IMG/VR virus record: IMGVR_UViG_3300038393_001696
Length of the DNA: 64,000 nt
Reading direction: 5' to 3' (one strand)
From: an uncultured virus (IMG/VR IMGVR_UViG_3300038393_001696)
Taxonomy: Duplodnaviria; Heunggongvirae; Uroviricota; Caudoviricetes
Both the position numbers and the translations under genes were made by a program. Position 1 is the first letter of the stretch; every line of letters starts with the position of its first letter. Positions 8,126-64,000 of the stretch are shown here, in pieces. Below the pieces are notes generated by a model. It was not told the origin of the DNA and made no database searches. It saw only the letters and a program-made list of their open reading frames with translations.

Positions 8126-8740
8126 GTGAACACCCAGGTCCAGAACACCCTGCCGGAGATCGGCTCTTCACTGGAAGGCGGCTTTTACGCCGGCCGGATC
8201 CAGATCGATGGCATTCTCTATGCGCTGATCGTCGCGCCGAAGGTGGAAGGCGAACGGGATGGCGTCGCGTGGCTCGAATCCGAGCAGCGCGTCGCTGATG
8301 CCAACAGCTACAACAACGGCATGCTGAACACGCGCGCCATGCTCGAAGCCGGAAGCGAGGTGGCTCAATGGGCACACGGCCTGGCTATCGGCGGCTACAC
8401 CGACTGGTATATCCCGAGCCAGGACGAACTCGAGATCATCTATCGCAATCTGAAGCCAACCGCAGAGACTAACTCGCTGTACGGCCGAAGTGGCGTGAAT
8501 ATCTCGGCGCCCCCGCCTACCTTCGCCTACAACCGCGAACTGCCGGCCAAGACGACGGCTGAAGGTTTTGCTGCGGGCGGCGAGCATGCCTTTGCTGACG
8601 AATGGTACTGGTCGTCCACGCAGAACGCTGCCTACGACGACTTTGCCTGGGGTCAGCTCTTCGTCATCGGCAACCAGGGCTACATCCCCAAGTCGGCCAG
8701 GCGTCGCGCCCGCGCGGTCCGCAGATTAACCATTCAGTAA
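8126..8740 (+). CDS. DGR target protein 1 (DUF1566-like C-type-lectin fold)
   Basis: GGFYAGRI...GGYTDWYIPSQDELE...WYWSSTQ...RARAVRR; carries VR1; directly upstream of avd. Confidence 0.92.
   Translation: MNTQVQNTLPEIGSSLEGGFYAGRIQIDGILYALIVAPKVEGERDGVAWLESEQRVADANSYNNGMLNTRAMLEAGSEVAQWAHGLAIGGYTDWYIPSQDELEIIYRNLKPTAETNSLYGRSGVNISAPPPTFAYNRELPAKTTAEGFAAGGEHAFADEWYWSSTQNAAYDDFAWGQLFVIGNQGYIPKSARRRARAVRRLTIQ
8619..8724 (+). repeat. DGR variable repeat VR1
   Basis: 106-nt ungapped match to TR 9288-9393: 14 mismatches at TR adenines, 2 at non-A positions. Confidence 0.95.
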
Positions 8741-8757
8741 TTTAGTCCTTTCTCAGC

Positions 8758-9111
8758 ATGGCACTCCACACCAACCTGCCGATCTACAAGGTCGCCTACG
8801 ATCTCCTGGTGCTCGTCGCTAACCTGTCGAAGAACATGCCGCGCGACTTCAAGGCATCAATCGGCGGCAAGCTTCGCGACGAGACCGTCGAGATCGTGAC
8901 CTTGATCTTTCGCGCCAACGTGGCGCGTGAGAAGGCTCGCCATCTAGATGCGCTGATCGAGCGCGTGCAGGTGGCTGAACTGCTGCTGCGGGTGGCGCGC
9001 GACATGCGCCTCATCGCGGTGAAGCAGTATGCCAGCGCGATCGAGCTGACTACCAGCGTCAGCAAGCAGGCCAATGGATGGCGCCGTTCCGCAATGCCGC
9101 CCGCTTCATGA
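8758..9111 (+). CDS. avd: DGR accessory variability determinant (four-helix-bundle Avd)
   Basis: LPIYKVAYDL...MPRDFKASIGGKL...IFRAN...SKQANGW; lies between target and TR. Confidence 0.9.
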   Translation: MALHTNLPIYKVAYDLLVLVANLSKNMPRDFKASIGGKLRDETVEIVTLIFRANVAREKARHLDALIERVQVAELLLRVARDMRLIAVKQYASAIELTTSVSKQANGWRRSAMPPAS

Positions 9112-10508
9112 TGGTCAAGGCCACCATGACTGTGCGAACTTTTAATCTGGTCGTGCCGCTGGCTCACGAGGCCACCGCCATGCGCACCGCAGATACCACT
9201 CGACAGTGTTCGGGCAGGTCCGGCGCAGTTTCCCCGCTGATCGGCCGCTGCGGCCTTCGGTGGGGCGATGTAGATAGCACGAATAACCGCAGCACGCTGC
9301 CAACGACGACTATGCCTGGAATCAGAACTTCAACAACGGCAACCAGAACTACAACAACAAGTCGGCCAGGCTTCGCGCCCGCGCGGTCCGCAGGTTATCC
9401 CGGCCGCCACCATGCTGATTTTTCTTTCGAGGAGCTGGTCCTAGCCTATCTGGACTGCCGCCAGACGAAGCGCACATCTGCCAGCGCCATAGCGTTTGAA
9501 CAGGACCAGGAGCGCAATCTGGCGCGGCTGCACGACGAGCTGCTTGATGGCACCTACCATCCGGGCCGGTCGATCTGCTTCGTCATCACCCGCCCAAAAG
9601 CGCGCGAAGTCTGGGCGGCGGACTTCCGTGACCGTATCGTGCACCACCTGCTCTACAACCGCATCGCGCCGCGTTTTCACGCCTCGTTCATCGCTGATAC
9701 CTGCGCATGCATCCCGGGCCGCGGCACGTTGTATGCGGCACGGCGCCTCGAGTCGAAGATTCGCGCAGCCTCCGGAAACTGGAGCAAGCCTCTGTGGTAC
9801 CTGAAGTGCGATCTAGCCAACTTCTTCGTCACGATCGACAAGCGTGTTTTATGGAAGCTTATCGCGGTCCGTGTGACCGAGCCCTGGTGGCTGTGGCTCG
9901 CTGGAGTGGTCCTGTTCCACGACCCGCGGCAAGACTTTGAAATGCGCGGCGATCGACGCCTGCTCGAGCGTGTGCCGGCGCACAAGCGGCTGGCCAGCCA
10001 GCCGAGCCATCTTGGCCTTCCAATCGGGAACTTGTCGTCGCAGTTCTTCGCCAACATCTACCTCGACGTGCTCGACCAGTACGCGAAGCACAGGATCGGG
10101 GCGCGCCACTACGTGCGCTACGTCGACGACTTCGTGCTGCTGCACGGGTCGCCGCGGTGGCTGAACGAAGCGCTGGCCAAGATTAACAAATTCTTGCCGG
10201 CGAAGCTGGGCGCGCGCCTCAACCCCACCAAGACGGTCCTGCAGCCGGTCGACCGCGGCGTCGACTTCGTCGGACAGCTGATCAAGCCATGGCATATGAG
10301 AACCAGGCGCCGCACGGTGCGTCAGGCCATCACGCGCGTGCGCACGATGGATGCGGACAACGTGCACTCAGCGGCTAACAGCTACTTCGGGCTGCTGCGC
10401 CAGGCATCCCACAGCCACGTCGACCGGGCGGCGCTGGCAAGAGCGGTGCTCCGGCGCGCGCATGCCGTCGACGGCGGCCTGACCAAGACCTATCGGAGGT
10501 CCAAATGA
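9108..10508 (+). CDS. DGR reverse transcriptase (start uncertain; recognisable RT sequence begins about 9420)
   Basis: REVWAADFRDRIVHH, LKCDLANFF, GLPIGNLSSQFFAN (DGR-type SQ motif), YVRYVDDF, GVDFVG. Confidence 0.93.
   Translation: MMVKATMTVRTFNLVVPLAHEATAMRTADTTRQCSGRSGAVSPLIGRCGLRWGDVDSTNNRSTLPTTTMPGIRTSTTATRTTTTSRPGFAPARSAGYPGRHHADFSFEELVLAYLDCRQTKRTSASAIAFEQDQERNLARLHDELLDGTYHPGRSICFVITRPKAREVWAADFRDRIVHHLLYNRIAPRFHASFIADTCACIPGRGTLYAARRLESKIRAASGNWSKPLWYLKCDLANFFVTIDKRVLWKLIAVRVTEPWWLWLAGVVLFHDPRQDFEMRGDRRLLERVPAHKRLASQPSHLGLPIGNLSSQFFANIYLDVLDQYAKHRIGARHYVRYVDDFVLLHGSPRWLNEALAKINKFLPAKLGARLNPTKTVLQPVDRGVDFVGQLIKPWHMRTRRRTVRQAITRVRTMDADNVHSAANSYFGLLRQASHSHVDRAALARAVLRRAHAVDGGLTKTYRRSK
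9288..9393 (+). ncRNA. DGR template repeat (TR)
   Basis: Nine AAC/AAT triplets in the VR reading register; matches VR1 and VR2 essentially except at A. Confidence 0.95.
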
Positions 10509-16247: not shown

Positions 16248-16374
16248 AGACGCGCGAAAATTTTCCAACGGATGCCTTGAAACCCGCATGGCTGGCACTG
16301 TTTTGTAGCGTATCCGTTGGAACGAAAAATCGGTAAGTGACTGAATAATCTATGAAAAACCACACCTCAATGCT

Positions 16375-16422
16375 GGATTGTGATTCCTGTCGTCGTGGGT
16401 TCGAGTCCCATCAGCCACCCCA
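16375..16422 (+). other. att core: 3' fragment of tRNA-His(GTG), not an intact tRNA
   Basis: GGATTGTGATTCCTGTCGTCGTGGGTTCGAGTCCCATCAGCCACCCCA has the anticodon loop, T-arm and CCA end; no D-arm or acceptor 5' strand upstream. Confidence 0.9.
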
Positions 16423-17836: not shown

Positions 17837-17897
17837 GGTCGCTCCTGATCAACCCCAAGCGTACTCCTATCGGCAATCGAAACCGCCGTTTATCGCC

Positions 17898-18212
17898 TCA
17901 GTCGGCCTTCCCGCACTGCTTTCGCTCGACCTTGTCCTTCGCCTTGGCGTCGGCGCGGGTCTGCCATTGCAGGTTGGGCAGGTCGTCGAGCGCCAAGCGC
18001 TCGGCCTCGGTCTTTGCGCAGGCCAAGGCAATCTTGTGGTCGACCACATAACCGGCACAAATCCCAGAGGTGCGGCCGGTGGCCGGGCATGGGACGGTGG
18101 CACGGAAAAGCCGGATGATTTTAGGGTTGCGCTTGAGCCTCCCGAAGTCATCTCTGGCCGGCGCCTGCGCGTGGGCGAGGACCGGCAACAGGAGCAAGAC
18201 AAGTAGCTTCAT
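17898..18212 (-). CDS. HNH-like protein with a signal peptide
   Basis: Signal peptide ending AHA; PCPATG...YVVDHKIAL...NLQWQT. Confidence 0.65.
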   Translation of the reverse strand: MKLLVLLLLPVLAHAQAPARDDFGRLKRNPKIIRLFRATVPCPATGRTSGICAGYVVDHKIALACAKTEAERLALDDLPNLQWQTRADAKAKDKVERKQCGKAD

Positions 18213-18353
18213 GCGCGCATTCTAGAAGCCCGTCCCGGCGCCCCTTTTGCGAACACGCAGTTCGCTTGACCTGCCGCCGAGCTCGCCTTGACGGTTAACA
18301 AGTTGGCGTAAACACAAGCATGCGAGGATGCCTCATCACATTACGGAGGCAAC

Positions 18354-18845
18354 ATGGCAGCAGATTTCTACCTGCAGATCGAAGGCATCAAGGGCGAGTC
18401 GTCGGACTCGAAGCACGCCGGCTGGATCGAATGCATGTCGGTCAACTGGGATATCCGGCAACCAAAATCGGCCACGGCTTCGACCGGCGGTGGTCACACC
18501 GCTGAGCGCGCCGAGCTCAGCGACATCAGCATAGCCAAGCTGGTTGACCTGTCCTCGCCCATCCTGGCGCAGCATTGCGCGATGGGGAAGACGATCCCGA
18601 AGGCGAAGCTGGAAATGCAACGCGCTGACGGGCAGGGGCAGCCGATAAAGTATTTCGAGGTCGAGCTCGAGAACGTACTAATCTCGCACATCGCGCCGAG
18701 CTTCGACGGCGGTGGGCAGCCAATGGAGAATTTGGGCTTGAAGTTCTCGAAGGTACGCTGGCGCTACACGCAGCAAAAGGTGGGCGGCGGCGCCAGCGGC
18801 AACACGGCCGGTGGCTGGGATCTGGCCACGAACAGGTTTGCATGA
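18354..18845 (+). CDS. hcp: T6SS Hcp tube protein
   Basis: DFYLQIEGIKGESSDSKH.GWIE...KLVDLSSP...GWDLATN. Confidence 0.95.
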   Translation: MAADFYLQIEGIKGESSDSKHAGWIECMSVNWDIRQPKSATASTGGGHTAERAELSDISIAKLVDLSSPILAQHCAMGKTIPKAKLEMQRADGQGQPIKYFEVELENVLISHIAPSFDGGGQPMENLGLKFSKVRWRYTQQKVGGGASGNTAGGWDLATNRFA

Positions 18846-19195
18846 TGCGCGCGCTCATTCTTTTGGCGCTCGCGCTGCCGGCTTACGCCGCGCCGGTCGG
18901 GACCCATCCATTCCCGTGGATGACCGGCGAGCAGCTACTGCGCAAGCTGGACCGACCGGCGAGCCAGATCGACGCTGCGGCGACATCAGCCTACCTGCAG
19001 GGCGTGATGGACGCCACCGCTGACCGTGAATGGTGCTACAGCGCGACCAAACCCGGTACCAACCAGGTGCAGCCGGTGCTGACGGACAAGCTGCGCGCGC
19101 TGCCACCGGCGCAGGTGCGCCAGAGCGCGGCGGTGCTGGCGGTGCAGGCGTGGCGAGAGAAGTGGCCTTGCACTGCGGGGTGCTGCCATGCATAG
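18842..19195 (+). CDS. Rap1a/Tai-like T6SS immunity protein
   Basis: Signal peptide, TGEQL, YLQGVMD, WC, C-terminal WPC; next to tae4. Confidence 0.8.
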   Translation: MMRALILLALALPAYAAPVGTHPFPWMTGEQLLRKLDRPASQIDAAATSAYLQGVMDATADREWCYSATKPGTNQVQPVLTDKLRALPPAQVRQSAAVLAVQAWREKWPCTAGCCHA

Positions 19196-19664
19196 ACCAC
19201 TCTATGCTGTCCTGCGAAGCAAGTATCCCGACAGGCGCTCCGTCAGCGCCGAGGAAATCTACCGGTGGATCGGCTACCCGCCCGAGTACGCGAGCGACGC
19301 GCGCTGGGCGAATACCTGCGCGGTCCGGATGAGCCTCGCACTAGTGCGCTGCGGGGTGCCGGTGCCGGGACGGCTGCGCGTGCTGGCCGGCGAGTGCAAG
19401 GGCAAGCTGCTCGAGCCGGGGCAGGCGAACCTTTCGCACATGCTGGTGCGCCTGTGGGGCGCGCCGGAAAAGTACCAAGGTGGCCCGGCGGCGATTAAGG
19501 GCATCGGCAGCCGGCGCGGCGTGATCAGCTTCTACCGCCTCTGGAACCCGAGGGACCCGCAAGGGCATATCGACATGGTGGCACCGTGGGGTATCAACGA
19601 CCTGGCATGTGAGGAGGACTGCTACTGGCTGTCGTCGGAGGTGTGGTTCTGGCCGCTGAAGTAG
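19188..19664 (+). CDS. tae4: Tae4-family peptidoglycan amidase effector
   Basis: NTCAVRMS (catalytic Cys), RGVISF, GHID (His), VWFWPLK. Confidence 0.88.
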   Translation: MHRPLYAVLRSKYPDRRSVSAEEIYRWIGYPPEYASDARWANTCAVRMSLALVRCGVPVPGRLRVLAGECKGKLLEPGQANLSHMLVRLWGAPEKYQGGPAAIKGIGSRRGVISFYRLWNPRDPQGHIDMVAPWGINDLACEEDCYWLSSEVWFWPLK

Positions 19665-19882
19665 CTGCGCATGATTGACTAGGATCAGGCAAGAAGCGCC
19701 GGACCGCACTATCGTAGCCGGATGACTCCGCGGACGAACCAGGCCGACGCCATGCTGATCGATCTTGCCGTGATCCTGCTGCCGCTGGTCGGGCCGCTGG
19801 AGGCGGCGCGCATGCTGGTCGACCGAGCGATCCCGCTGCGCCTTGCAGTACGCGCGCTGGCCAGCAGCAGGCGCCGCGCCAT

Positions 19883-20086
19883 CTACGCGGACATGTTCCA
19901 GCCGTCGATGCCGGCCTGACGCATGCGCGACTCGTCCTCGCGCCGGGTGTACATCAGCACGGCGCCGCACGGCTGACCGCACTTGCACATCAACTGCAGC
20001 GTGTGAACGCCCGCCCGCTTGGCCTTCACGAAGCGCGGGGCCTTGCCGCAGGAGCACGGGCGCACCATCGGTTTCTGTGCACTCAT
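19883..20086 (-). CDS. Small Cys-rich phage protein
   Basis: PCSCGK...CKCG; ATGA coupling. Confidence 0.45.
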   Translation of the reverse strand: MSAQKPMVRPCSCGKAPRFVKAKRAGVHTLQLMCKCGQPCGAVLMYTRREDESRMRQAGIDGWNMSA

Positions 20087-21267
20087 GCAGCCTCCAGCAT
20101 CTCGGGAGTGACGGTGTTGCGGCATACCTGGCCAAATTCGCTGTGGTAGGTGATCGCGGTGCACTGCCGCTCGCTCATCCAGCCGCCCCGGGCCGCATAG
20201 GCGTCCCGCGAGGCCAAGGTCGAGTGTTGTACCACCTGCATGCCCGGATGCTCCTTTTCCTCGACATGGTGCCGGTGGCCGGTGTGCGCGTAGCGCTTGG
20301 TCGTGTCGCCCCACATCTTCGGGAACTGTGCGGCGAACAGCAGCGGCAGCTGGTCGTTCTTCTTCAGGTGGCCATGGTGCCAGGCCAGCATCGTGCTGCC
20401 GTGCTGGTAGGCGTAGTACGGCAGCTCCGAATCAATTACCTCGACGCGCGGCTCCTTTTCGTACAGGGCCTTGAACATTGCACGCAGCCACACGCTCGAC
20501 GCGAGGTCGTGGTTGCCCTCGGCGAGCAGCACGATCACGCGCCGGTGCTTTCGCAGCGAGAAGTCGACCACGCGCCGCAGGATACGGATTGCGGCGGCAA
20601 CAACCTTCGGAAATCTCCCGTCCTGGTCGAGAATATGGCCCGAGGTGGGCGTCTTGGCCTCCAGCCCATCGCTGTGCATCCAGTCCCCAAGCTGCGCCAC
20701 GATACCGACGTCGGCCGGCGGACTGGCGTCGACCATGTGCTCGAAGCAGCCGGTCAGCACCCGCTCGGCGATCGACAAATCCCAGTCGCCGTTGGCGGCC
20801 AGGTTCTCCTTATGCCACGCGAGCATGCCGACATGGCTGTCCGTCAATGTGTAAAGGTTGGCCAGCTTGGCGTTTGTCAGGCGCGGAGCCTTGACCGGCT
20901 TGGCGCGCGGGAGCTCCTCGGCCATTGCCGCCGCAGCCTCGCGCATGATCTCTTCGAGCTGGTCGGCATCAGCGCGGGTCTTCACCCACTGCAGCACCGG
21001 CACGCCGTCCTTGAACAGGGTCGAGGTACCCTTGAGCATTTGGCCGGGCGCCACCGGGTGCTGCAGATGGTATTCGGGCGCGTAGCCGCGCGCAGCGGCG
21101 GCCAGCTTCAGGCGCGCCAGTGACGCCGCGATCGTGGTCTTGCCGACCCCGAGCGCGCGGGCGGCCGGGCGTTCGCCGCCGTGCGCGATCACGGCGTCGA
21201 GGTAGACGGCCTGCTGCGGCGTGGCGAAGTCGCGCAGCGCCGGGTCGTAGTGGGGTGCTTTGCTCAT
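20083..21267 (-). CDS. HTH plus calcineurin-like metallophosphoesterase
   Basis: AARALGVGKTT HTH; DSH, GDWMH, GNHD, HHGH, GHRH motifs. Confidence 0.8.
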   Translation of the reverse strand: MSKAPHYDPALRDFATPQQAVYLDAVIAHGGERPAARALGVGKTTIAASLARLKLAAAARGYAPEYHLQHPVAPGQMLKGTSTLFKDGVPVLQWVKTRADADQLEEIMREAAAAMAEELPRAKPVKAPRLTNAKLANLYTLTDSHVGMLAWHKENLAANGDWDLSIAERVLTGCFEHMVDASPPADVGIVAQLGDWMHSDGLEAKTPTSGHILDQDGRFPKVVAAAIRILRRVVDFSLRKHRRVIVLLAEGNHDLASSVWLRAMFKALYEKEPRVEVIDSELPYYAYQHGSTMLAWHHGHLKKNDQLPLLFAAQFPKMWGDTTKRYAHTGHRHHVEEKEHPGMQVVQHSTLASRDAYAARGGWMSERQCTAITYHSEFGQVCRNTVTPEMLEAA

Positions 21268-24003: not shown

Positions 24004-25020
24004 TTACCCTATCTTCTCAATGAAAATCTCTGAGTACACCTCGACCTGGCCGGAAACGGATGCCGGCAAGCCCCAAAATGACGGACTGGCGCCGGAAAAA
24101 AGATCACGCAGCTCCAGCGTCCGAGTGCTGGCAAGAGTCACGAACGCCGTCAATTCAGACGCCTCGCCGTAGTAATCTGCGGCTCCCGAGTAATCGAAGT
24201 TTCTGGCGCCGTTACCGAATGCCAGATACGCACTTCCCGTCACGTCGTACAGCGCAAGCCGCCGCTGTACCCCTGTGTTCAAGGTGAGCGGTGAGCGAGC
24301 GCGGATTTTGTAGTTCCCGCCAGGAACGCCAGTAATCTGGTTCCCAGACAGCGCCATGCCGGCGATCTGGTTGGTCTTAACCGTATTCAGCACGCGCCGA
24401 TAGCCACCCGTGACAGCGGTTCCAGCCGCGCCATACGTACCGCTCGCCTGCTCTTCGCGCGCATGGAAGACCAGGATGCTCGGCGAACCCTGGTCGCCCT
24501 TGTCGCCGGTGCGCTGGAAGAACAGCACCAGCGGATCGCCGTTGACAAATGGGGTTGCCGAACTACCAGTGATGCCGGCCACCGAGATGTTGCGGTAGCC
24601 GCCCGTGCCGGCGATCGCACTGACGCTGAAGAACAGGAACTTCGACGCGTCCCCCACCTTCATCAGCAGGATGTGGCCCTTGACGGCACTGGTCGAACCG
24701 CCGAAGGTGTCGAGCATCGCGGTGAAGTCATTCCCGTTCGAGCCGATCAGGTCGGTGCGGATCACTGCCGATGACCACTGCGTCGCGTTGTCCAGCCGCA
24801 GCTTGCCGCTGCCCGGGTCGGCGTCGGCGGTGGCCGTGTCGAAGGTGTACGGGATGCGGTAGGCGCCGCCGGCGGCAGCGAAGTTCATGTTCGCCTCGGT
24901 GGTATTCACCTGGGTCGCCCACACCGGGAAGTTCGCCATCAGCAGCGCCATCGCGTTGTCGAAGGCCTGCTGGTCCATCTGGCGGTTCGGCAGGCCGCTT
25001 ACCAATGCTGAAATCGTCAT
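24004..25020 (-). CDS. Distal tail / fibre-like protein
   Basis: Position in tail module; RTGDKGDQG hinge; C-terminal part has different codon usage. Confidence 0.55.
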   Translation of the reverse strand: MTISALVSGLPNRQMDQQAFDNAMALLMANFPVWATQVNTTEANMNFAAAGGAYRIPYTFDTATADADPGSGKLRLDNATQWSSAVIRTDLIGSNGNDFTAMLDTFGGSTSAVKGHILLMKVGDASKFLFFSVSAIAGTGGYRNISVAGITGSSATPFVNGDPLVLFFQRTGDKGDQGSPSILVFHAREEQASGTYGAAGTAVTGGYRRVLNTVKTNQIAGMALSGNQITGVPGGNYKIRARSPLTLNTGVQRRLALYDVTGSAYLAFGNGARNFDYSGAADYYGEASELTAFVTLASTRTLELRDLFSGASPSFWGLPASVSGQVEVYSEIFIEKIG

Positions 25021-58061: not shown

Positions 58062-58124
58062 ATTAGTCGGACTGATTGACTGTGTCAACAGCCAGACTAA
58101 TTGCCGAATATTAGTTTCACTTAT
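58062..58124. promoter_or_regulatory. Prophage 2 OR-like operators (15-bp, consensus near ATTAGTCnGACTAAT)
   Basis: ATTAGTCGGACTGAT 58062, AACAGCCAGACTAAT 58087, ATTAGTTTCACTTAT 58110. Confidence 0.75.
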
Positions 58125-58135
58125 ATTCTTGCGAG

Positions 58136-58909
58136 ATGCCAGCACTCCCCCTCACCCATGAACAGCTTTCCGACGCCGCCCGTCTCAAGAACCTCTTTGC
58201 GACCTGGCAGAGAGGTCGCAGGGAGGCAGGCTTGCCATCGTCTCAGGAGGCGTTGAGTGACTTGCTGGGGTTCAACCAGAGCGCCATGAGCCAGTACTTG
58301 AACGGCCGGATTCCGCTCAACGTCGACGCTGCTACGAAGTTCGCCAATCTAATCGGATGCGCGGTGGTGGACTTCAGCCCAAGCCTAGCCAGCCAGATCG
58401 AGAGGTATGCCGCCGCGGCGGAGGCTCTCAACGAGACCCGACTTCCGTATAGTGCTGCCCAAGTATCGCTCGACCCGGAAGAAGACGTAATCCCAATCAA
58501 AACCGTAAATATTCGCGTTGAAGCAGGATTCCCAGGGTTTGAGGCTGATCGGGACTTTGAAGACGGCGGCGTCATCCATATTCCGCGCAAAGTGGTAGAA
58601 GCAAACGATTGGGTGCCGCAGTGTCTTCTCGCCACCAAGGTTAGGGGCGACAGCATGGCGCCTGTTTTCGCTGACGGCGACATTATCGTGGTCAATATCG
58701 CGGACACTAAGCCAGTGTCCGGGGAAATCTACGCGATTAATTACGAGGGAACGCCAGTCGTTAAGCAGATGGCAAATGAGGGGCCAATGTGGTACATGCG
58801 CTCCTTCAACCCTAACTATAAGCCGGTTCTATTCAGGACTCCAGACTCTAACATCATTGCAAAAGTCGTCTATCAGCCTGGACGAGTAGTGGCTGGGCGG
58901 ATTGTATAG
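58136..58909 (+). CDS. cI: CI repressor (HTH plus S24 peptidase)
   Basis: SQEALSDLLGFNQSAMSQYLNG; AG cleavage site; VRGDSM; VVKQ. Confidence 0.92.
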   Translation: MPALPLTHEQLSDAARLKNLFATWQRGRREAGLPSSQEALSDLLGFNQSAMSQYLNGRIPLNVDAATKFANLIGCAVVDFSPSLASQIERYAAAAEALNETRLPYSAAQVSLDPEEDVIPIKTVNIRVEAGFPGFEADRDFEDGGVIHIPRKVVEANDWVPQCLLATKVRGDSMAPVFADGDIIVVNIADTKPVSGEIYAINYEGTPVVKQMANEGPMWYMRSFNPNYKPVLFRTPDSNIIAKVVYQPGRVVAGRIV

Positions 58910-60082: not shown

Positions 60083-60124
60083 ATCAGTCAGACTGTTGAC
60101 TGCGTTAATCAGTCAGACTAATAT
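60083..60124 (+). promoter_or_regulatory. Prophage 2 OL-like operators and PL-like promoter
   Basis: ATCAGTCAGACTGTT 60083, ATCAGTCAGACTAAT 60108; TTGACT 60096, 17 nt, TAATAT. Confidence 0.75.
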
Positions 60125-61052: not shown

Positions 61053-61946
61053 ATGTTCTTCAAGAACCTGCAGCTGTACCGCCTGCCCGCGCCGTGGGCG
61101 ATGAGCGCCGACGCGCTGGCCGCCGCGCTGGCGCCGCACACGTTCGTGCCGCCGTCCAGCAACGAGCTGCTACGCCAGGGCTGGACCGCCCCGCGCGGCG
61201 CCGGGCTGGTGCACAGCGTCGGTGGCCAGTACCTGCTGCAGCTGGCCACCGAGAAGAAGCTGCTGCCGGCCGCGGTGATCCGCCAGGCCGCGCAGGACCG
61301 TGCCGCCGCGCTGGAACGTGAGCAAGGCTTCGCGCCCGGCAAGAAGGCAATGCAGGAGCTGCGCGAGCGTGTGGCCGACGAGCTGCTGCCGCGCGCGTTC
61401 CCGGTCAAGAGCGCCCTGCACGTCTGGATCGACCCGGCCAACGGCTGGCTCGCGATCGACACCGCCAACGCAGCCAGTGCGGACGGCGTGGTCAAGCTGC
61501 TGCTCAAGGCGGTCGACCGGATGCCGCTCGCATCGCTGCGCGTGGCGCATGCGCCGGTCGCGGTGATGACCGGCTGGCTCGACGCGGATGAAGCCCCGGC
61601 AGGTTTCTCGATCGACCAGGACGCCCAGCTGCGCGCCGCCGGCGAGAGTCGCGCCGAGGTCGGCTACCGGCGGCACACCCTCGAACCGGACGACATGCGC
61701 CGCCACATCGCCGCCGGCAAGCAGTGCACGCGGCTGGCGCTGACCTGGAACAGCCGCATCTCGTTCGTGCTGACCGAGACGCTGGCGCTGCGCGCGATCC
61801 GCCCGCTCGACGTGCTCAAGGAAGGCGCCGCGGCCGCGTACAACGACGACGAGCGCTTCGACAGCGACTTCGCGCTGATGGCCGGTGAGTATGCGCAGCT
61901 GCTGGCCGACCTGGCCGCAGCGCTGGGCGGCGAGGCAGCAACATGA
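61053..61946 (+). CDS. rdgC: Recombination-associated protein RdgC
   Basis: Close homolog of 7008-7904. Confidence 0.92.
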   Translation: MFFKNLQLYRLPAPWAMSADALAAALAPHTFVPPSSNELLRQGWTAPRGAGLVHSVGGQYLLQLATEKKLLPAAVIRQAAQDRAAALEREQGFAPGKKAMQELRERVADELLPRAFPVKSALHVWIDPANGWLAIDTANAASADGVVKLLLKAVDRMPLASLRVAHAPVAVMTGWLDADEAPAGFSIDQDAQLRAAGESRAEVGYRRHTLEPDDMRRHIAAGKQCTRLALTWNSRISFVLTETLALRAIRPLDVLKEGAAAAYNDDERFDSDFALMAGEYAQLLADLAAALGGEAAT

Positions 61947-62161: not shown

Positions 62162-62938
62162 ATGTCCTTCGACACCGCCGAAGCAGCACCCGCCGCAGTG
62201 GACGCCACCGCTGCCGCACCGGCAGCCGCTGCCGTTGACCAGCACCTGTTCGTTACCGTCCCGGAAACCACGCTGCCGAACGGCACGGTGGTCCCGGCCT
62301 TCCAGGTCGGCCAGTACTACTGCTCGCAGGGCGCGGACGGCAAGCTCGCGATCAACGCGAGCAGCGAGCCGTGGGTCGAGATCAGCTACCACGCCGCGCG
62401 CCAGGCCTGCGCCGCCGCCGGCTACTCACTGCTGACCGAGCTGCAGGCGTTGGCGATTGCACACAACATCGCCCAGCAGGGCGCGAACTGGAGCGGTGGA
62501 CAGGTTGGCGTGGGCAACCTGCTGCAGGGCCTGCACCTCGACCCCGACGACGCCGACGAAGCCTACGCCGGCGACTACGTGCCAGCCGATCCGGCCGAGC
62601 GCCGCATGTTCGTGCTGTCGAACGGCCAGACCATCTGCGACGCGGCCGGCAATTTCTACGGCTGGGTCTTCGATGACGTCCAAGGCGACGAGAACGGTTT
62701 AGTGGCGCGCGCATTCGCTGCCGATTCGCCGTCGATCACCACGGCGCCATTCCCGTCGCTGGAGCGCGGCATGGGCTGGTATCCGAAGGCCGGCAGCGAT
62801 TGGTCGGGCGCTGCGCTCCTCCGCGGCGGCTACTGGTGTTCGGACGGCGATGCCGGCGTGTTCGATCTCGACTACGGCTGGCCCGGCGACGCCTACGACT
62901 ACGTGGGCTTCCGCTGCACCAAACCCATTGGTCTCTGA
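62162..62938 (+). CDS. Putative DGR target A (FGE-sulfatase-type C-lectin fold)
   Basis: FQVGQY, PWV.ISY..A..AC, DAAGN, RGG.W, VGFRC; GGAG RBS at MSFD (frame is open back to 61943). Confidence 0.8.
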   Translation: MSFDTAEAAPAAVDATAAAPAAAAVDQHLFVTVPETTLPNGTVVPAFQVGQYYCSQGADGKLAINASSEPWVEISYHAARQACAAAGYSLLTELQALAIAHNIAQQGANWSGGQVGVGNLLQGLHLDPDDADEAYAGDYVPADPAERRMFVLSNGQTICDAAGNFYGWVFDDVQGDENGLVARAFAADSPSITTAPFPSLERGMGWYPKAGSDWSGAALLRGGYWCSDGDAGVFDLDYGWPGDAYDYVGFRCTKPIGL

Positions 62939-62972
62939 TCCCTGGTCCCGGGTCGCCGCGTCAGCGGTGACC
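62801..62972 (+). repeat. Putative VR-A, conserved 3' tail and hairpin
   Basis: Ungapped match to 63762-63933; hairpin GGTCGCCGC-GTCA-GCGGTGACC. Confidence 0.85.
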
Positions 62973-63008
62973 GATCCCGAGCCACCGACAAACGCGAGAA
63001 CCGCCAAC

Positions 63009-63899
63009 ATGAAAATCGAACTCACCCAAGAGCACACCTTTACCGCCCGCGCTGGCGCCTACACGGTACACGGCCTGCGCCGCGCCGACCAATGGGAAGG
63101 CCTGACCAAACTGGTGGACCTGTCCGAGCGCTTCCTGATCGTATCTGACAACGACGGAATCGTGGTCAAGGGCACGCCCGCGCTGCTGCGCGACCTGCGC
63201 CTGACCGCCAGCACCGACTTGTTCGTCACCGTGCCGGAAACTACGCTGCCCACCGGCCAAGTCGTGCCGTCGTTCCAGGTCGGCCAGTACCACTGTGGCA
63301 GCGACGGCGACAGCATCGCCATCCGTTCCGACTTGGTGCCGCTGGTACGCGTCAACTACCGCGACGCGAAAACGCGCTGCGTGGACGCCGGCTACCAGTT
63401 GATCACCGAACGGCAATGCCTGGCGATTGCCGTCGACATCGCCGGGCAGGACATCAACTGGACCGGCGGCAAGGTCGGGCACGGCGCGATCTACCAGGGC
63501 CTGCACCTCGGCACGGTCAGCGCTCCGCAGGCCGGCACCTACGAACCGGACGACAACGAACGCCGCTGGCACCAGCTGTCGAACGGTGCGCGCATCTACG
63601 ACTTCGCCGGCAACATGTTCAGCTGGGTGTACGACGACGTGCAGGGCGACGCCGAAGGTCTGGTAAGCGCCGCGATCGAAAAGGACTCGCCGTCGCTCGC
63701 CAGCGCGCCCTACCCCAGCGAACAGAAGGGCATGGGCTACATCCCGCGCGGCCCGCTGAAGTGGTCGGGCCGTGCGCTCGTCCGCGGCGGCTGCTGGTTT
63801 TCGGACGACCGTGCCGGCGTGTTCAGTCTCGACTACGACTGGCCCGACTCCGCCAGCGTCTACGTGGGCTTCCGCTGCACCAAACCCATTGGTCTCTGA
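63009..63899 (+). CDS. Putative DGR target B (FGE-sulfatase-type C-lectin fold)
   Basis: Paralog of A with a different N-terminus; DFAGN, RGG.W, VGFRC. Confidence 0.8.
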   Translation: MKIELTQEHTFTARAGAYTVHGLRRADQWEGLTKLVDLSERFLIVSDNDGIVVKGTPALLRDLRLTASTDLFVTVPETTLPTGQVVPSFQVGQYHCGSDGDSIAIRSDLVPLVRVNYRDAKTRCVDAGYQLITERQCLAIAVDIAGQDINWTGGKVGHGAIYQGLHLGTVSAPQAGTYEPDDNERRWHQLSNGARIYDFAGNMFSWVYDDVQGDAEGLVSAAIEKDSPSLASAPYPSEQKGMGYIPRGPLKWSGRALVRGGCWFSDDRAGVFSLDYDWPDSASVYVGFRCTKPIGL

Positions 63900-63933
63900 T
63901 CACTGGTCCCGGGTCGCCGCGCCAGCGGTGACC
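63762..63933 (+). repeat. Putative VR-B, conserved 3' tail and hairpin
   Basis: 17 coding differences from VR-A, all at codon positions 1-2; hairpin GGTCGCCGC-GCCA-GCGGTGACC. Confidence 0.85.
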
Positions 63934-64000
63934 TCCCTTAACCAGAACAATAAATAAGAAGACAACCATGCAACAGGCAGCAACCCAGCACCCCACCGAC

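Follow-up and report, generated by a model that had tools for sequence, protein, structure and literature searches.

The window, by which we mean the whole stretch of 64,000 nucleotides that was analysed, forms the beginning of an 81,368-base viral contig, whose numbering continues that of the window. On its + strand the contig carries, in this order, rdgC, two target genes, an accessory gene, a template repeat (TR), a spacer, a reverse transcriptase (RT), several small genes and an integrase. The start of target 2 has been corrected to 63009, and each target contains a variable repeat (VR).

62162-62938, + strand: target 1, 258 aa, an Ala-rich leader and an FGE-type C-lectin domain (Pfam FGE-sulfatase, E = 1e-3, below cut-off)
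62801-62916, + strand: VR1, 116 nt, 15 mismatches to the TR, 15/15 at TR adenines
62951-62972, + strand: target-recognition hairpin 1, 9 bp, loop GTCA, preceded by 7-nt repeats
63009-63899, + strand: target 2, 296 aa, a 66-aa beta-rich N-terminal module and an FGE-type C-lectin domain (Pfam, E = 5e-6)
63762-63877, + strand: VR2, 116 nt, 16 mismatches to the TR, 16/16 at TR adenines
63912-63933, + strand: target-recognition hairpin 2, 9 bp, loop GCCA
63968-64822, + strand: accessory gene, 284 aa, MutS domain I fused to Avd (Pfam MutS_I E = 0.006, bAvd E = 2e-4, both below cut-off)
64845-64960, + strand: TR, 116 nt, 25 adenines in 18 codons
64961-65067, + strand: structured spacer between TR and RT, 107 nt
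65068-66171, + strand: RT, 367 aa, with GMPIGN and YVDD (RVT_1, E = 1e-20)

The initial annotation of this DNA had described two diverged paralogs that become near-identical over their 3' coding ends and the adjoining downstream sequence. This is borne out: a 172-nt repeat (62801-62972 and 63762-63933) differs between its copies at 19 sites, 17 coding and 2 downstream, whereas upstream of it the target cores are 55% identical over 182 aa. As had also been observed, all 17 coding differences fall at codon positions 1-2 and leave the third C/T unchanged. A third copy of the repeat lies at 64845. It agrees with the other two at 103 and 102 of 120 bases, where the background averages 34 and the next-best position in the contig scores 59; no further copy rises above background in a scan of both contig strands. 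Because every mismatch between this copy and VR1 or VR2 is an adenine in that copy, we identify it as the TR. The probability that all 16 VR2 mismatches would hit the 25 adenines of the 116-nt TR by chance is 1.2e-13, and the 17 coding differences between VR1 and VR2 likewise all coincide with TR adenines, as expected of the AAY template that had been predicted. Beyond position 116 TR and VR diverge, that is, the IMH differs from the IMH*. In the entire contig the TR has no matches other than VR1 and VR2.

The TR and RT had been predicted to lie outside the window, and a search beyond position 64000 for an A-rich copy, an avd gene and an RT had been proposed. That search recovers the TR, an accessory gene and an intact RT, the TR and RT directly downstream, and the guessed start of the template agrees with the real TR at 38/42 bases (compared by eye). 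What had not been foreseen is that Avd would be fused to a MutS_I domain, or that the cassette would sit in an early arm rather than a tail region. Gene conversion or orphaned targets, named at the time as the alternative, are excluded by the existence of TR and RT downstream. We regard it as practically certain that the locus is a complete two-target diversity-generating retroelement (DGR), in which the 18 variable codons of each target allow about 5e14 possible VR peptides.

The targets themselves belong to a fold familiar from other DGRs. Target 2 is modelled (pLDDT 94) as a 66-aa beta module followed by an FGE-type C-lectin domain. Its best structural matches are DGR variable proteins, namely TaqVP (Z 17.2, rmsd 4.0, 224 aligned), TvpA (15.2) and Mtd (14.8), of which the FGE-type proteins TaqVP and TvpA, although the best matches, belong to cellular elements; its closest viral folds are tail-fibre domains. 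The C-type lectin fold carries the VR at its C-terminus, for target 2 according to the model and for target 1 by homology. Both targets are predicted to share the FGE fold, but with a C-terminal surface that is the hypervariable VR; TvpA, of the same class, is reported to be without FGE activity (PMC5758913). A hydropathy window finds no obvious export signal in target 1 or target 2; at a loose threshold it flags 21/141 lineage targets, these two not among them. Pfam has no family, and the Atlas no usable match, for the N-terminal module of target 2 or for that of the second common target class (see below); neither target 2 nor the fusion protein has a relative among 50,697 GenBank phage records.

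The accessory protein is encoded in one 284-aa frame, and the best 120 homologues are listed at 250-297 aa, covering 88-100% of it. Below the Pfam cut-off in both cases, MutS_I matches residues 40-107 and bAvd residues 194-278. Foldseek matches the model (pLDDT 75) to MutS domain I (1nne, E = 4e-4, rmsd 3.2 over 99 columns), and a weaker match links its Avd part to Avd in the BPP-1 complex 8ub7 (E = 0.02, TMt 0.76); this Avd-type C-terminal domain has a pI of 9.9. F58 and H60 are invariant in 40/40 aligned homologues and are presumably the counterpart of the Phe-X-Glu mismatch-binding motif of MutS. The family comprises 391 clusters at E <= 0.001 among 3592 candidates. With regard to MutS itself, deletion of host mutS in Bacteroides ovatus was reported to raise VR mutagenesis 5- to 10-fold, i.e. 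host MutS lowers retrohoming (10.1101/2024.11.15.621889), and BPP-1 retrohoming is reported not to require MutS (PMC5758913). Downstream, 8/18 base pairs of the spacer RNA show two-sided changes across 51 sequences, with covariation of 0.28 compared with 0.155 in shuffled and at most 0.11 in slid alignments, and the RT of one relative matches the PHROG 1423 RT at E = 8e-87.

Each gene had been described as followed by the same 9-bp hairpin with a 4-nt loop. The stem is indeed common to both (one pair being G.T), but the loops, GTCA and GCCA, differ by one base. Such a 9-bp hairpin lies 3' of 136/140 targets in the wider lineage, with pair 7 alternating between CG, GC, TA and G.T. Most of the loops read GTA, GTAA, GCA or GTCA. 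Although 121 of them start with G and end with A, 3/136 fit the 4-nt GRNA consensus of BPP-1-like phage hairpins, and neither GTCA nor GCCA does. In BPP-1, where a GC-rich hairpin follows the VR, that consensus was reported to be critical (Guo et al. 2011, PMC3240598). Between the VR end and the hairpin, imperfect 7-nt repeats starting with GGTC are seen at 62931-62950, at 63892-63911 and in most related loci, with three copies in 67/136 targets. In the spacer RNA, the strand pairing with an invariant GACC at the TR 3' end is likewise GGTC; because the motif is common to the repeats and the spacer strand, one might speculate that target DNA competes for the GGTC/GACC helix.

The cassette of this temperate soil phage occupies the equivalent of a lambdoid early arm, between a CI-like repressor and the integrase.

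58063-58100, no strand assigned: two operator-like palindromes over a leftward (cro-side) promoter, from pattern recurrence
58136-58909, + strand: CI-like repressor, HTH and peptidase (PHROG 4, E = 9e-35)
60084-60124, + strand: putative pL-like sigma-70 promoter with two overlapping operator-like palindromes
61053-61946, + strand: rdgC, a recombination-associated early gene (Pfam RdgC, E = 2e-102)
69882-70949, + strand: tyrosine integrase (E = 3e-9)

The palindrome occurs four times in the window at up to 1 mismatch, against 0.36 expected: two copies cover the boxes of the rightward promoter (60096-60124) and two cover the leftward, cro-side promoter. Since it was the pL site that supplied the operator pattern, only the recurrence at the cro promoter counts as independent. 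From the pL-like promoter to the integrase, no + strand terminator was called. Judging from sequence, the pL-like promoter is probably under repressor control and the DGR co-transcribed from it. The tail-fibre gene (24004-25020) lies on the opposite strand, 37 kb from the cassette, and contains no VR.

The contig holds a second DGR, in prophage 1 (8126-10508, + strand), consisting of an Lcl_C target, a plain Avd, a TR near 9288 and an RT. The repeat at our locus is unlike that TR, as had been noted, with a best ungapped match of 48 bases. The prophage-1 DGR has another target 6.7 kb away on the cro/cII side (2441-2830, - strand), with adenine-only mismatches in its core and, like the early-arm DGR at 62162, it sits after an rdgC copy. 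An exact 2,947-bp repeat links 17892-20838 to contig positions 74141-77087; within it, the repeated moron block carries a putative Hcp-like gene (18354-18845 and contig 74603-75094) that runs on the other strand from the late genes. By eye, an att core resembling a tRNA 3' end can be recognised near 16370-16420, beside the first integrase, and no tRNA gene was called in the contig. The contig consists either of related prophages in tandem or of two phages joined in a figure-eight assembly; three other contigs support the DGR cassette independently.

These three IMG/VR contigs (L058, L109 and L059, the same records as L002, L024 and L003) align gaplessly with ours over 20,769, 19,768 and 14,391 nt, with 37, 27 and 37 differing sites, of which 35, 27 and 35 fall within VR1/VR2. 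All VR differences are at TR adenines, the TR itself is identical, and the 2 differences outside the VRs map to a repeated segment 10 kb off. Among the near-identical copies there are three alleles of VR1 and two of VR2. Since the contigs differ almost solely at VR positions that correspond to TR adenines, they show that both targets were diversified recently. Adenine-specific VR alleles in otherwise identical genomes look like the population footprint of mutagenic retrohoming, which these comparisons indicate does occur. In the metagenome runs, of which 8 of 16 listed were compared, X4 contains two alleles of VR1, with 17 and 15 differences, alongside flanking contigs with 0 differences, and two pieces of VR2 come from X11. 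A single VR1/VR2 allele pair predominates in several of the runs and contigs, so that turnover may be slow. Because these dominant alleles recur and the samples, soil and rhizosphere, may stem from one campaign, the data speak to recent activity and not to its rate. In one VR1 allele (L024:5834-5949) the 5' half equals the L002 allele and the 3' half that of the window. Such an allele may have arisen by partial replacement, by recombination between copies of the phage or as a mosaic made in assembly; if only the 5' part was replaced, this would conflict with a strictly 3'-anchored model.

How general is this arrangement? Locus scans gave 24, 26 and 64 loci; 92 loci were analysed and dereplicated to 75. 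An exact-pattern scan of metagenome contigs gave no match, and a protein scan gave two distant loci, which were left out of the analysis. The layout recurs in the 75 dereplicated betaproteobacterial (pro)phage loci, with named hosts that include Undibacterium, Duganella, Pseudoduganella, Thauera, Aromatoleum and Gallionella. VRs are present in 70/75 (142 entries: a single VR in 11 loci, two in 47, three in 11 and four in 1) and absent from 5/75; an RT match is missing in 6/92, some of them at contig ends. Keeping in mind that detection favoured such pairs, VR mismatches in the lineage fall at adenines in 2442 cases and elsewhere in 127. One of the 142 entries is an internal duplication in L040, where a VR (L040:214-513) has a stretch of about 27 nt duplicated in tandem and in frame.

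The targets sit as far as 9 kb upstream, dispersed among early genes. An early-gene marker (integrase, excisionase, RecE/RecT, RdgC, SSB, ParB-like, CI, Cro or CII family) is found within 10 kb in 66/75 dereplicated loci, and an endolysin in 6. Among the 75 large neighbours scanned, out of 81 proteins >450 aa, there are 6 head or tail genes, in 5 loci; four of these six are on the opposite strand and two are co-oriented about 7 kb or more downstream. Upstream of the targets in L037, L039 and L046 we see what we take to be a lookalike of a ThiF/E2/ubiquitin-like (PRTRC-type) module, an early-arm feature of 3-4 loci; its scanned members have no PHROG match.

The 140 distinct targets comprise 74 that are bare or have a short leader, 29 with a conserved 75-aa module, 25 with the target-2 module, 6 others and 6 truncated forms. 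A short and an extended target are combined in 43/55 multi-target loci, compared with 30.6 +/- 3.6 after shuffling (p = 0.0003, a value overstated because the loci are kin). The nearest neighbour of a target core is of the same class in 103/124 cases and from the same locus in 16/130, which marks the target classes as old. Gene conversion or recent duplication of the paralogs was considered and rejected, given that same-locus figure and a median within-locus core identity of 54%. Longer target forms are rare (4 among 4428 candidates), and none has a Pfam tail domain. The N-terminal modules that can be named are of cytoplasmic types: a 256-aa domain with matches to RusA-like and processivity-factor PHROGs (L046:7492-8940) and DUF4406, which with an unnamed 114-aa domain accounts for the rare modules at L037:8903-9919 and L096:8912-9937. 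Both the RusA-like/processivity-factor domain and DUF4406 have free-standing homologues in other loci. The low-complexity leaders of short targets in L032, L033, L060, L061 and L062 contain a PAAAWPFP-like motif, possibly a docking motif. Tyr and Arg exceed independent-site expectation at several AAY codons; at codon 22 (n = 133), for example, Arg occurs 40 times against 8 expected and Tyr 29 times against 9. This enrichment would fit selection for binding and equally a context bias of the RT, so we do not take it as proof of selection.

Much of this resembles known systems. BPP-1 (mtd-avd-TR-brt) has the same target-avd-TR-RT order, adenine-specific VR, C-lectin fold and GC-rich hairpin after the VR, but here there are two early-arm targets, probably not tail proteins, and Avd is fused to MutS domain I. 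Whereas a BPP-1-type tropism-switching DGR has a tail receptor-binding protein as its target and a 4-nt GRNA loop in its hairpin, the present targets are early-arm genes of 258 and 296 aa, with the loops described above. The DGR of Sideroxydans lithotrophicus ES-1 (Wu 2018 Table S1 row 60, PMC5758913) agrees in its TG-AVD-TR-RT order, its CLec1/FGE-sulfatase target, its one adjacent and one non-adjacent target, its strong stem-loop and an 846-nt 'AVD' of the size of the fusion. It is, however, filed there as chromosomal, with no phage homologs, a plain Avd and no MSL, and that row mentions neither a fusion nor an early arm. Going by these dimensions rather than by sequence, it is probably of the same lineage. 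Architecture D DGRs (Wu 2018) and Bacteroides Msl share a MutS-like mismatch-recognition accessory that always accompanies Avd, as the MutS domain I-like accessory does here, but their MSL and avd are described as separate genes (in the first 19 of 55 places in the Wu rows), mostly in Bacteroidetes and Gammaproteobacteria and with CLec2 surface targets, whereas ours form a single chain in a phage.

The betaproteobacterial DUF1566/Lcl_C DGRs (Burkholderia phage Magia, Wu rows 30-34 and 41-45, and prophage 1) likewise have lectin targets that are short and free-standing, two or three in number and some of them non-adjacent, and occur in temperate phages or in chromosomes. They differ in their CLec2 targets, plain Avd and unrelated TR, and we regard them as a parallel lineage in the same genomic niche. 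Clade-5A cellular DGRs (Dore et al. 2024, PMC10907252) have similar pairs of short and extended targets, but the MoxR/NLR effectors reported for them do not recur here. According to Wu et al. (2018, PMC5758913), about 15% of DGRs are multi-target, FGE-only targets are common and the MSL accessory accompanies avd; the words 'fused' and 'fusion' are absent from the main text as available. Short target genes in a temperate phage appear in the Magia announcement (PMC7883833), and two-VR cassettes have been noted in Proteobacteria (PMC11661182). In the open-access literature we found no account that presents the lineage as early-arm elements of phages, a negative of limited weight, and no title or abstract start on early, intracellular or counter-defence phage DGR targets describes it. 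The DGR mechanism, multi-target cassettes and FGE-only targets are already known, as is one probable lineage member (Wu 2018); what appears to be new is a phage lineage in which the DGR sits in the early operon, the accessory gene is a fusion and the targets are probably not virion parts.

What might such a cassette do? It is established that DGR retrohoming proceeds by misreading of adenines and replacement of the VR by cDNA. Upon infection or induction, we propose, the repressor would leave the pL-like promoter and one transcript would carry rdgC, both targets, the MutS-Avd fusion, the TR-spacer RNA and the RT. Because a single early transcript would supply all DGR parts, mutagenesis would coincide with phage DNA replication. 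Errors of the RT at TR adenines then pass with the cDNA into VR1 or VR2, each having its own IMH and hairpin, a step whose footprint is visible in the alleles described above; 18 codons vary in each target, over the roughly 5e14 VR peptides. Domain I of the fusion may bind the mismatch-rich heteroduplex and shield it from host repair, a role to which the Bacteroides result and the invariant F58 lend indirect support and against which the BPP-1 result counts. The targets are very probably cytoplasmic and not parts of the virion. Taken together, these five steps, an induction-coupled and shielded DGR that makes cytoplasmic hypervariable binders, seem likely to us. Being encoded among early genes and not in the tail, the targets are likely to bind partners inside the infected cell.

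Which partners is a more tentative matter. Ranking the candidate ligands, we put host restriction or defence proteins first, as a serious possibility of somewhat less than even standing, ahead of competing-phage proteins, a regulatory signal and, last, a surface receptor. Our best guess, going by location and variability, is that the targets are phage anti-defence proteins that neutralise a host component; no defence system is linked to the cassette. The full picture, a repressor-controlled, antibody-like counter-defence kit of betaproteobacterial temperate phages, MutS-shielded, with a cytoplasmic target pair and renewed at each induction, is offered as a conjecture that we hold to be rather doubtful as a whole.

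Another scenario, which we consider unlikely, is that the targets defend the lysogen or infected cell as hypervariable sensors or inhibitors of superinfecting phage proteins. Cellular DGRs have been proposed to diversify cytoplasmic antigen sensors that come in short CLec-only and extended pairs (PMC10907252), the same pairing is seen in our 43/55 multi-target loci, and a related phage resides on the same contig. However, the cassette has no recurrent neighbour from an NTPase, TIR or other effector family, and the putative promoter would be off in the lysogen, just when defence is needed. Somewhat less likely still, the targets might respond to a metabolite or a signalling protein of the host and adjust lysis-lysogeny or the recombination of the phage, with the DGR retuning them to new hosts. 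The early-arm place near CI, recombination and excision genes, the nucleotide-related DUF4406 module of one target and the cro/cII-side operon of the second prophage-1 target would all suit such a role. Against it, there is no common output domain, 74/140 targets being essentially bare domains, and a repertoire of 1e14 suits an arms race more than a fixed signal.

It is also improbable, a little more so than regulation, that the targets belong with the virion as receptor-binding or adsorption proteins, in the manner of Mtd, and merely happen to be encoded in the early arm. Their fold is common to Mtd and tail-fibre C-terminal domains, viral DGR targets are reported to be mostly structural (Roux et al. 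preprint), and a change of host range is suggested for comparable short targets in the Magia announcement (PMC7883833). Yet tail fibre and assembly genes of the phage's own lie 37 kb off, without a VR, the lineage keeps to recombination, methylase and integrase gene neighbourhoods, and the scanned N-terminal modules and longer forms carry no fibre, collar or Ig domain. Finally, the idea that the paralog 3' ends were homogenised by gene conversion, or that the DGR is a dead relic, might draw on the near-identity of the IMH and hairpin region outside the TR but can practically be dismissed, given an intact TR and RT and differences that all fall at TR adenines, including those between genomes otherwise identical over 14-21 kb.

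The usual interpretation of phage DGRs is that they switch host range through tail proteins. A widespread, recently active lineage that diversifies early, cytoplasmic-looking proteins points to a second, intracellular use of phage hypermutation. Its compact cassette makes two questions testable: the role of MutS-like accessories in retrohoming and the recognition of a hairpin whose loop is not GRNA. If the counter-defence proposal is true, many 'chromosomal' multi-target DGRs of Betaproteobacteria would be early-arm elements of prophages.
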